From contig JBBTRH010000013.1 in NCBI GenBank assembly GCA_038065275.1, forward strand, positions 32,106 through 96,105: 64,000 nucleotides of DNA, written 5' to 3'. The DNA comes from Patescibacteria group bacterium (GTDB taxonomy: Bacteria > Patescibacteriota > Patescibacteriia > SBBC01 > CAIJZX01). The first letter of the stretch is position 1; the number at the start of each line of letters is the position of its first letter. Below the pieces are notes generated by a model that saw nothing but the letters and a program-made list of their open reading frames with translations, searched no databases and was not told the DNA's origin. Positions 32,497 through 33,023 of the stretch are shown here, one piece after another. The position numbers and the translations under genes are program-made.

Positions 32497-32525
32497 TACC
32501 CAGGAACAGGATTCGAACCGACAAA
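32497..32525 (-). other. degenerate partial copy of a tRNA 3' end (T-arm plus acceptor: GTCGGTTCGAATCCTGTTCCTGGGTA)
   Basis: Resembles the 3' end of the interrupted tRNA-like gene at 32768 (GTCGGTCCGAATCCGACCCTGGGAGCCA). Candidate integration scar. Confidence 0.35.
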
Positions 32526-32578
32526 AACATTGGCGTTACGAACGTACTTATGCGTTTTTTACGCAAAAAGCCCCACCG

Positions 32579-32650
32579 CTCCGGGGACAGGATTCGAACC
32601 TGTGACCAATCGCTTAACAGGCGACCGCTCTACCGCTGAGCTACCCCGGA
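32579..32650 (-). tRNA. tRNA-Asn (anticodon GUU)
   Basis: Hand-folded cloverleaf: acceptor UCCGGGG/CCCCGGA, D-stem GCUC/GAGC, anticodon stem GUCGC/GCGAU with loop CUGUUAA, T-arm ACAGG-UUCGAAU-CCUGU, discriminator G. Confidence 0.8.
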
Positions 32651-32767
32651 GCATTGGGGCCTTGTTCAATATTTATCGATGTAAATTTTCTGATCCGGAG
32701 TGGGAGACGACTGGCCAAGCAACTAGGCAAACCGGATAGGGGTCGGTCTCCCAGCAACTTCGCCAGT

Positions 32768-33023
32768 TGGCTCCCAGGGTCGGATTCGGACCGACAACCA
32801 ATCGGTTAATCCCGCACCACAACGAACTGATCTATTGGACGGGCACTTGTGGCTCCGGGGGAGGGATTCTCCGCCTCCGTCCGCCCGACGGTACTGCGGC
32901 GGATCCGCCACAGCATATTTCGGATATGCGGAGGCGGAGAACCCACGACCAAGTGATTAACAGTCACCTGCTCTACCACTGCCTGCCCGCCGAAGCTACT
33001 GCGGAGGCGGGAGCTACCTGGGA
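32768..33023 (-). tRNA. tRNA-like gene with GUU anticodon arm, interrupted by a ~30-nt insertion in the D-loop and a ~150-nt insertion before the T-arm; 3' CCA encoded (intron-containing tRNA or pseudo-tRNA)
   Basis: 5' UCCCAGG-UA-GCUC ... AGUGGUA-GAGC-A-GGUGA-CUGUUAA-UCACU-UGGUC ... GUCGG-UCCGAAU-CCGAC-CCUGGGA-G-CCA. Acceptor halves pair perfectly. Insertions contain the repeated 12-mer CCGCCTCCGCA and a 12-bp hairpin. Confidence 0.3.

Follow-up and report, generated by a model that had tools for sequence, protein, structure and literature searches.

A tRNA-like stretch beside rpoD in a Patescibacteria genome is probably a mosaic of tRNA-Asn remnants split by a palindromic element

The minus strand of a 64,000-nucleotide (nt) stretch of contig JBBTRH010000013.1 from a Patescibacteria group bacterium (assembly GCA_038065275.1), called the window below, carries an intact tRNA-Asn gene and, upstream of it at 33084-32768, a longer sequence that resembles a second, interrupted tRNA gene. 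Our analysis favors, with a probability of roughly 0.6, the view that this longer sequence is a dead mosaic produced by repeated insertions at a tRNA hotspot beside a defense island, and it is most likely non-functional as a tRNA. Judged by block-by-block comparison with relatives, it is shown to interleave pieces of two tRNA-Asn lineages, designated X and Y. Lineage X supplied a 5' acceptor strand, tRNA positions 14-76, and an encoded CCA end, and lineage Y supplied a leader with positions 1-13 and a displaced 3' fragment. The T-loop of the X body is split by a 69-nt palindromic element that we call HP. An earlier reading of the same DNA, made from its letters alone (the original prediction), had joined the outer pieces into a single tRNA gene with a GUU anticodon and two insertions at 32768-33023.

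Results

Composition of the mosaic

For the comparison, 80 related genomes were fetched through RpoD, 88 rpoD loci were scanned, and a tRNA-Asn hidden Markov model (HMM) was built on 51 tRNA-Asn genes from relatives; loci outside the window are given L numbers. Lineage X resembles the tRNA-Asn genes of L002, L081, L009, and L012, and lineage Y resembles that of L087. All pieces of the mosaic lie in 5'-to-3' order on the minus strand, with no permutation. The first is TCCGGGG (33078-33084), an X-type 5' acceptor strand at the ancestral gene start that is the perfect complement of CCCCGGA at 32854-32860. A 7-mer by itself is weak evidence, and the assignment is carried by the spacing to the promoter: TCCGGGG stands 12 nt after a -10 box, which is also the spacing to the gene start in L002 and L081. 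It is followed by a Y-type 5' end at 33011-33028, made up of the leader TTGAT and positions 1-13 (TCCCAGG TAGCTC), which is identical to the leader and 5' end of L087 at 18/18 nt for the outer fragment and 20/21 nt for the intact gene of that locus. A GC-rich insert of 30 nt in the D-loop (CCGCCTCCGCAGTAGCTTCGGCGGGCAGGC, 32981-33010, ending GGCGGG-CAGGC) separates this Y-type end from X-type positions 14-56 (32939-32980), which run from the D-loop through an intact anticodon arm (GUU) and the variable loop as far as the 5' half of the T-arm. A 43-nt stretch of this X body is identical at 43/43 positions to the functional tRNA-Asn genes of L009 and L012.

HP (TCCGCC...GGCGGATCCGCC...GGCGGA, 32870-32938) lies in the center of the T-loop, at TTC|GAA. 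On its far side is GAATCCCTCCCCCGGAGCCA (32850-32869), an X-type T-arm 3' half and acceptor 3' strand with encoded CCA, identical at 20/20 positions to the 3' end of the L002 and L081 tRNA-Asn genes; with this block, the X body is seen to possess a T-arm 3' half, acceptor strand, and CCA of its own. A 40-nt spacer (32810-32849) then leads to a Y-type 3' fragment (32768-32809) that runs from the anticodon loop (TTAA) to CCA and has an intact T-arm. This fragment is 93% identical (40/43) to the 3' part of the intact L087 gene, and its acceptor strand is complementary to the TCCCAGG at 33017-33023. The spacer ends in GTGGTGCGGGA, which gives the junction GTGGTGCGGGA|TTAACCGATTGG; its homologue in L087 is TTGGTGTGGGGA|TTAACCGATTGG (86% over 29 nt). 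CAAG...CAGTTCGTTG (repeat family D13) is common to the spacer and the DNA that follows the TCCGGGG remnant. A separate degenerate 3' fragment, fragment C (32497-32525, minus strand), extends from the T-loop to the acceptor 3' strand at the edge of the low-GC defense island. It duplicates the 3' end of the intact gene in diverged form, with 90% identity over 20 nt (repeat family D4), an exact match to GGATTCGAACC, a hybrid T-arm (GTCGG...CCTGT), and a weak HMM match at 32524-32501 (E=2). A similar degenerate duplicate had been claimed to lie between the two tRNA genes as well, and the HMM found none in 32651-32767.

The tRNA-Asn HMM matched the mosaic at 33005-32936 (E=1.6e-10) and 32833-32768 (E=1.7e-8), and weakly at 32869-32850. 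The motifs from which the single gene had been folded by hand (UCCCAGG/CCUGGGA-G-CCA, GCUC/GAGC, GGUGA-CUGUUAA-UCACU, and GUCGG-UCCGAAU-CCGAC) are thus all present in 32768-33023, and their derivation from tRNA-Asn is far beyond chance. What does not survive is the one-gene model, which joins the ends of Y to the body of X and overlooks both the CCCCGGAGCCA end at 32850-32860 and the TCCGGGG at 33084-33078. Once the blocks are assigned to lineages, the complementary acceptor halves turn out to be the two ends of Y, enclosing an anticodon arm that comes from X. The supposed single insert of ~150 nt in front of the T-arm is in fact a split T-arm with the 69-nt palindrome, a second CCA end, the 40-nt spacer, and the separate 3' fragment. 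Among the smaller details, the ~30-nt D-loop hairpin corresponds to a real insert (33010-32981), but not to an insert of one single gene; the repeated 12-mer is a real repeat, but of 11 nt (TGCGGAGGCGG, twice; repeat family D10); and the 12-bp perfect hairpin has real arms, but these are 16 nt long and 94% complementary (32864-32879 and 32929-32944), and the hairpin is that of the mobile palindrome.

Neither ARAGORN at default settings nor Rfam recognized a tRNA gene in 32768-33023, where the best match to RF00005 reached 20.3 bits over 32926-33005 only, under the gathering score of 29 bits. The X body departs from a normal tRNA in that its T-loop is split by 69 nt at TTC|GAA and its D-loop is 30 nt too long. 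Inactivation by insertion, one of the possibilities originally raised, is consistent with the splitting of the T-loop by a mobile palindrome, but the inactivated pieces come from two lineages and not from one gene. The stretch as a whole is predicted to fold at -131.7 kcal/mol, with z = -6.7 relative to shuffled controls.

A palindromic element in the T-loop

Removing HP from the window sequence restores GGGTTCGAATCCCTC, the T-arm of L002 and L081. Further copies were collected from a metagenome pattern scan filtered for the 3' arm and from the RpoD loci, and 120 loci were read; the metagenome pattern matches were mostly due to chance and came from GC-rich contigs. At least eight independent copies of 69-73 nt were identified, one of which is represented twice (L101 = L126); the genomes that carry them have 33-57% G+C. 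A single viral match was discarded as a chance occurrence because it lacks the 3' arm. Common to the copies is a predicted four-way junction formed by a 12-bp outer stem, the central palindrome GGCGGATCCGCC, and two side hairpins, and each copy contains six occurrences of the hexamer TCCGCC/GGCGGA in inverted arrangement. The sequences of the side hairpins vary while their pairing is kept, with compensatory changes in both hairpins at nine pairs. In the alignment, two rows of which are opposite strands of the same element, 93.5% of cells were paired, compared with 84.8% in shuffles (0/500 reached the observed value) and 41-55% in slid-partner controls. A covariance model scored the window copy at 83 bits, and the HP hairpin matched no RNA family in Rfam at E<=10.

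The sites occupied by HP are unrelated to one another apart from a preference for T-loops. At L101 HP interrupts the T-loop of a 3' remnant of tRNA-Thr, 53 nt beyond the intact gene, and at L187 it occupies a T-loop-like site, GGTTC|GAATCC; a diverged relative in L008 follows the GGTTC of a tRNA-Asn 3' fragment. In L123 it splits an open reading frame (ORF) resembling a REP-associated tyrosine transposase (RAYT; NF047646, 73.5 bits against a cutoff of 80 bits), and excising TCCGCC...GGCGGA from it restores MTQRAIDG, the start of all five aligned homologues (in P0121 after a 6-residue extension). Other copies are in unrelated intergenic DNA. HP thus has the inverted termini (TCCGCCTCCG/CGGAGGCGGA), unrelated sites, and empty-site equivalents (the T-loop of L002/L081 and the N-terminus of the RAYT homologues) of a miniature inverted-repeat transposable element (MITE). 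No target-site duplication is present, as TTC|GAA, ATC|GAC, and TCC|GAC rejoin exactly, and 4/8 junctions fall at TC|GA. The sequence TTCGA was found in the T-loop of every tRNA gene read in this analysis, which would explain the repeated insertions of HP into T-loops. Judged from its occupied and empty sites, HP is shown to be mobile, to insert without target duplication, and to prefer TC|GA.

A RAYT, considered as the cognate enzyme of HP, is a doubtful candidate: the association is a single one (L123), HP is absent from three other RAYT-like loci, and no RAYT gene was found in the window or in fetched loci other than L123. The RAYT-like ORFs of Kerfeldbacteria have a palindrome of their own, a perfect internal one of 12-14 bp (ACAACGCACTCT...AGAGTGCGTTGT, coding for PQRTLERVRC) that is conserved across homologues (L123:3394-3421, L209:10253-10284, L212:10233-10262). 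Near another RAYT-like gene, L213:8149-9718 encodes a reverse transcriptase and bAvd pair reminiscent of a diversity-generating retroelement.

The window holds one full HP and one partial copy. The partial copy is the D-loop insert at 33010-32981, which begins with CCGCCTCCGCA, a sequence shared with the full HP, and looks like a truncated HP relative. The module to which it belongs, GCTC-C[hairpin]GGGG-CAKGC-ARYGGYAGA, is also found in 5' tRNA-Asn fragments of L005 (6136-6195) and L062 (3858-3920), in each case upstream of an intact gene.

Nested tRNA-Asn genes in relatives

Fragments of tRNA-Asn stand beside an intact gene in at least 12 of the 88 rpoD loci. The clearest case is L087, where an intact tRNA-Asn with its own leader/trailer stem lies inside a perfect 12-bp inverted repeat (TCCCCACACCAA/TTGGTGTGGGGA), and the whole inner unit sits between positions 1-21 and 35-76 of an outer tRNA-Asn copy that bears further inserts in its variable region and T-loop. 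The same nest of 5' fragment, intact gene, and 3' fragment was seen in L081, L017, and L005. The inner gene of L017 is a different variant from its outer pieces, which are of the resident type found in L011, L013, and L016; the inner gene is accordingly the newcomer.

Two observations in other loci concern the same kind of arrangement. L127:13840-13994 (minus strand) contains a tRNA 5' fragment with a GAA anticodon (tRNA-Phe by eye) and a GC-rich hairpin after TAGCTCAG in its D-loop, ~110 nt upstream of the intact gene, so that the pattern extends beyond tRNA-Asn. L085:4840-5110 carries homologues of the 3' end of the window's X lineage and of the module downstream in L081, namely CCCCGGAGCCA, a hairpin with a compensatory change (CCGAC/GTCGG to CCGTC/GACGG), GGGATTCGAA, and a GC-rich insert; their strand is opposite relative to rpoD, which suggests an inversion at the hotspot. 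A literature search for the HP motif, for nested tRNA genes, and for palindromic elements in Patescibacteria returned nothing relevant, and both the HP family and the tRNA-in-tRNA nests appear to be undescribed.

Genomic setting

In this Kerfeldbacteria-like genome the gene order dnaG (34618-36459), rpoD (33128-34333), tRNA-Asn, all on the minus strand, is the conserved one. The window RpoD shares 82-92% identity with its counterparts in Candidatus Kerfeldbacteria and other Patescibacteria, and a tRNA-Asn(GUU) follows rpoD, often directly, in most of the 80 related genomes, which places the mosaic at a conserved rpoD/tRNA-Asn junction. In most of the 88 loci this tRNA-Asn is plain. The closest relatives (RpoD 82-92%: L001, L003, L083/L084, and L086) have neither a tRNA-Asn nor a remnant of one in the rpoD neighborhood, and consequently they offer no orthologous mosaic for alignment and no covariation test of the outer structure. 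The comparison with related loci that the original prediction had called for therefore succeeded in one respect, as the genes of relatives resolve the blocks, but turned up no orthologous mosaic.

Directly after the rpoD stop codon is a promoter-like TTGACG-17 nt-TATACT (33097-33125, minus strand; 10/12 matches). Because TTGAC-N17-TATACT also stands upstream of tRNA-Asn in L002, L081, L087, and L085, this site is the likely promoter for the whole tRNA-Asn region; the stretch before the intact tRNA-Asn contains no other promoter-like site. The intact tRNA-Asn(GUU) at 32579-32650 (minus strand), as originally proposed, was called by ARAGORN and by Rfam (RF00005, 73 bits). Its CCA is not encoded. 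An imperfect leader/trailer stem encloses the gene, which is followed at 32571-32592 (minus strand) by a terminator-like hairpin with a U run. The tRNA complex is bounded by a 13-bp terminator-like hairpin (32446-32475, minus strand), and a similar hairpin, CCACCGAC...GTCGGTGG, comes directly after rpoD in L082. Leader/trailer stems of 9-14 bp that extend the acceptor stem surround both the intact tRNA-Asn (32567-32663) and the tRNA-Ser (39943-40048) of the window, and such stems were also seen around intact tRNA genes in L005, L008, L017, L022, and L087. Often an A run precedes them and a U run follows, as if the tRNA lay in the loop of a bidirectional terminator hairpin.

True introns occur in the same gene elsewhere. 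In nine related loci (L029:3565-3846; L066:5704-6009, minus strand; L038:3472-4065; L027, L060, L061, L063, L068, and L071), the tRNA-Asn(GUU) after rpoD is split in its anticodon loop (CTGT|...|TAA, positions 35/36) by a group I intron of ~200-550 nt. L066 served as the positive control, with 70 bits for Rfam Intron_gpI, and an ORF in the L038 intron has CxxC/HH motifs typical of HNH endonucleases when read by eye.

Beyond fragment C, a low-GC block at ~21-32.4 kb encodes an HTH/ImmA pair, DUF2188 and DUF3892 proteins, a type I restriction-modification system, an Abi-like protein, and a PD-(D/E)XK nuclease. Pfam searches of the 15 ORFs tested in 20.0-32.4 kb identified no integrase or recombinase family, and no tRNA repeat marking the far end of the island was found in 15-32 kb. 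At that far edge lies a LOOT RNA (RF03000, 80.9 bits; 21603-21724, plus strand). Defense genes accompany tRNA genes at two other places that were read. In L081 a HEPN/AbiV gene (4989-5558) comes just after the tRNA-Asn complex. In the window a gene for a 1014-residue type ISP restriction enzyme (36644-39688) lies between dnaG and the tRNA-Ser(GGA); in L001, L081, L082, L083, and L085 the interval from tRNA-Ser (where seen) to dnaG measures ~0.4-0.9 kb and contains no more than one or two small genes, for example one for a NUDIX hydrolase. The type ISP gene thus occupies a space that is short in relatives and seems to be a second tRNA-linked defense insertion in the window. About 25 nt downstream of this tRNA-Ser(GGA) there is a degenerate copy resembling a T-loop and 3' end (TTCGTTCGAATCCTTGCTCCGC, 39905-39927, minus strand), together with GC-rich hairpins.

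Discussion

The mechanism by which the mosaic arose is partly resolved. Its ancestor would have been a nested locus like those of L087, L005, L017, and L081, in which the D-loop of the resident gene was separated from its anticodon loop or T-loop by a segment that held a complete tRNA-Asn together with a leader/trailer stem of its own. A deletion between the two copies of a D-loop repeat, AGTGGTAGAG, may then have joined the Y 5' fragment, the outer one, to the X body of the inner gene. Such a deletion would yield exactly the present order of blocks, and no intermediate for it was found among the relatives. HP would have struck the T-loop of X and a related hairpin its D-loop, and function would have passed to the intact gene at 32579-32650. 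Since no promoter-like site precedes that gene, transcription from the conserved promoter probably still runs through the mosaic, which would form a long, structured leader on the tRNA-Asn precursor and be cut off by RNase P. Fragment C and the type I restriction/abortive-infection island would mark the same site as an insertion hotspot. Candidates for the nesting agent are a tyrosine integrase with crossovers in the anticodon loop and the T-loop, and homology-anchored illegitimate recombination.

Several observations weigh against this reconstruction. The Y 5' and 3' pieces are still perfectly complementary and the Y T-arm is intact, yet no intact Y-type gene is present, and the whole stretch, which is probably transcribed, has an unusually stable fold (z = -6.7). 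The outer tRNA-derived blocks of L081 and L087 are 100% identical to the inner gene despite unrelated inserts between them, a pattern that slow decay explains less well than selection, gene conversion, or very recent events would. The order of events is inferred rather than observed, because no relative with an RpoD above 92% identity turned up that has this arrangement. Part of the invariance of the HP outer stem and center is an artifact of the exact search pattern. Finally, a simple pair of left and right attachment sites (attL/attR) does not predict an island that lacks an integrase and a far-end repeat, or spacings of 7-150 nt between gene and fragment.

That the tRNA-like stretch is a genuine tRNA-Asn with introns, one in the D-loop and one between the variable loop and the T-arm, which are spliced to give a working tRNA, is almost certainly wrong. 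Its acceptor halves do pair at 7/7 positions, ARAGORN calls the product of deleting both segments in silico a tRNA-Asn (72 bits with the HMM), and insertions in rRNA genes are known in Patescibacteria (PMC10714607). However, any combination of blocks gives a good tRNA-Asn (76-78 bits), so in-silico splicing does not discriminate; the supposed intron holds a complete alternative T-arm 3' half, acceptor strand, and CCA; and an intact gene lies 118 nt downstream. No group I or group II intron core was detected in 32300-33300 (Rfam, E<=10), and the anticodon loop, CTGTTAA, is intact. The junction arms (pair I2) form a continuous 16-nt helix with the T-stem, 94% complementary and free of 3-nt bulges, and not a bulge-helix-bulge. 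The group I introns of relatives sit in the anticodon loop, which to our knowledge is where the bacterial tRNA introns known so far are located, and with the parts unpermuted neither of the originally suggested forms, intron-containing or permuted, is supported. It is also very improbable that the stretch is an assembly artifact, a chimeric join of reads from strains with different tRNA-Asn alleles. In favor of an artifact, the source of the window is a metagenome-assembled genome, the stretch interleaves two allele types, and repeated tRNA blocks are classic sites of misassembly. Against this, comparable nests are present in independent assemblies from different projects and assemblers (L005, L017, L081, and L087), the junctions lie at insert boundaries outside the shared repeats, and HP sits exactly in the T-loop, as it does in L101 and L187.

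Element integration is known to leave displaced tRNA fragments behind (PMC9897764; PMC4383910), and the fragments here might all be plain attL/attR scars of successive tyrosine-integrase elements that were later largely deleted, with no cassette carrying a tRNA. The places at which the fragments begin speak for such scars: the Y 3' fragment (32809-32768) starts at the anticodon-loop TTAA, as do 3' fragments of L087, L005, L022, and L101 in their anticodon loops, whereas fragment C (32525-32497) and 3' fragments of L017 and L081 start in the T-loop or T-arm. The anticodon loop and the T-loop are reportedly the two crossover sublocations that Williams regarded as classical in 2002. The hybrid T-arm of fragment C is what a T-loop crossover would be expected to leave, and a defense island adjoins. 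We nevertheless consider this explanation unlikely, because 5' fragments upstream of an intact gene are not predicted by it, neither an integrase nor a far-end repeat was found in the island searches, spacings go down to 7 nt (L005), and fragment C lies on the wrong side of the island, between it and the intact gene instead of beyond it. The originally proposed integration scar next to the low-GC island is therefore plausible in kind, given where the 3' fragments start, but is not a textbook attL/attR pair. Equally improbable in our judgment is a functional structured RNA, in which a split outer tRNA-like scaffold (Y acceptor stem and T-arm, with expanded loops) is co-transcribed with the real tRNA-Asn and could serve as a processing platform, as a decoy (for instance for anticodon nucleases or integrases), or as a regulator. 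The intact Y acceptor and T-arm and the stable fold noted above would suit such a role, as would the recurrence of the nested architecture in L005, L017, L081, and L087, the complete identity of outer blocks and inner gene in two of these (L081 and L087), and a conserved promoter upstream of the mosaic with none before the intact gene. The D-loop hairpin module, with its fixed position, CAKGC tail, and variable paired arms (window, L005, and L062), points the same way. On the other hand, the distribution is patchy, most of the rpoD loci having a plain tRNA-Asn; the inserts differ between genomes in sequence, length, and position; the inner gene is broken in the window and intact in the other nests; and the homologous pieces of L085 are reversed. 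For the outer structure no alignable set exists in which covariation could appear.

A bolder reading, tentative and in our estimate rather doubtful, is that some Patescibacteria harbor an undescribed kind of tRNA-directed mobile DNA, comprising HP, which homes to TC|GA in T-loops, and cassettes that bring a replacement tRNA-Asn. Such cassettes, flanked by inverted repeats of the type TCCC(G/C)C...G(C/G)GGGA, may enter the loops of the resident tRNA-Asn and so give rise to tRNA-in-tRNA nests, of which the window would hold a collapsed example whose outer shell may still act as RNA. If nested cassettes are indeed mobile together with their own tRNA, they would represent a new way to land in an essential gene that the host survives. 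Irrespective of this possibility, the favored mosaic carries a warning for annotation, since a persuasive interrupted tRNA can be put together from pieces of tRNA genes, whether by eye or by permissive software; the chimera was exposed here by an internal second CCA end and by comparison with relatives. The rpoD/tRNA-Asn junction is a recurrent hotspot in Patescibacteria that has received group I introns, nested remnants, defense genes, and an uncatalogued palindrome targeting TTCGA, and the HP family and the nests merit a systematic survey.

Comparison with known systems

The 3' fragments most resemble the attachment-site fragments described with Islander (PMC4383910) and by van der Gulik et al. 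2023 (PMC9897764), which are likewise partial 3' copies beginning at the anticodon loop or T-loop, lie next to an intact gene and a foreign low-GC defense island, and can be mistaken for genes. Unlike those, the island of the window lacks an integrase in the 15 ORFs tested and is not bracketed by gene and fragment, and the locus also has 5' fragments, nesting within 7-150 nt of the intact gene, and hairpin inserts inside the fragments. Interruptions in the D-loop and T-loop and complementary acceptor halves recall the multi-intron, split, and tri-split tRNAs of archaea (PMC4090602; PMC4390854). The present host is a bacterium, however, there is no bulge-helix-bulge, the interrupting DNA holds the 3' end of another tRNA, and an intact copy is present. 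Group I introns in the anticodon loops of bacterial tRNAs are found in the very same gene, the tRNA-Asn after rpoD, in nine related loci, some with an HNH ORF, whereas the anticodon loop of the window copy is uninterrupted and no group I core was detected there.

HP itself invites comparison with palindromic repeats. REP/REPIN elements are mobilized by RAYT (HUH Y1) transposases, and the Rickettsia palindromic elements are MITE-like palindromic repeats. Like both, HP is short, GC-rich, built from an inverted short motif, and capable of forming a hairpin or cruciform; it occurs at unrelated loci in several genomes and enters genes, including RNA genes, without duplication. With its 12-bp outer stem, palindromic center, and six inverted hexamers it has the build of a REPIN doublet. 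It differs from both kinds of repeat in its four-way junction with two covarying side hairpins, in its preference for TC|GA and hence for tRNA T-loops, and in its numbers, with one full copy in 64 kb, and the sole RAYT-like gene near a copy is itself interrupted by HP. Taken together, the locus is of an ordinary kind in an unusual form: tRNA remnants at an insertion hotspot combined with a palindromic mobile element.

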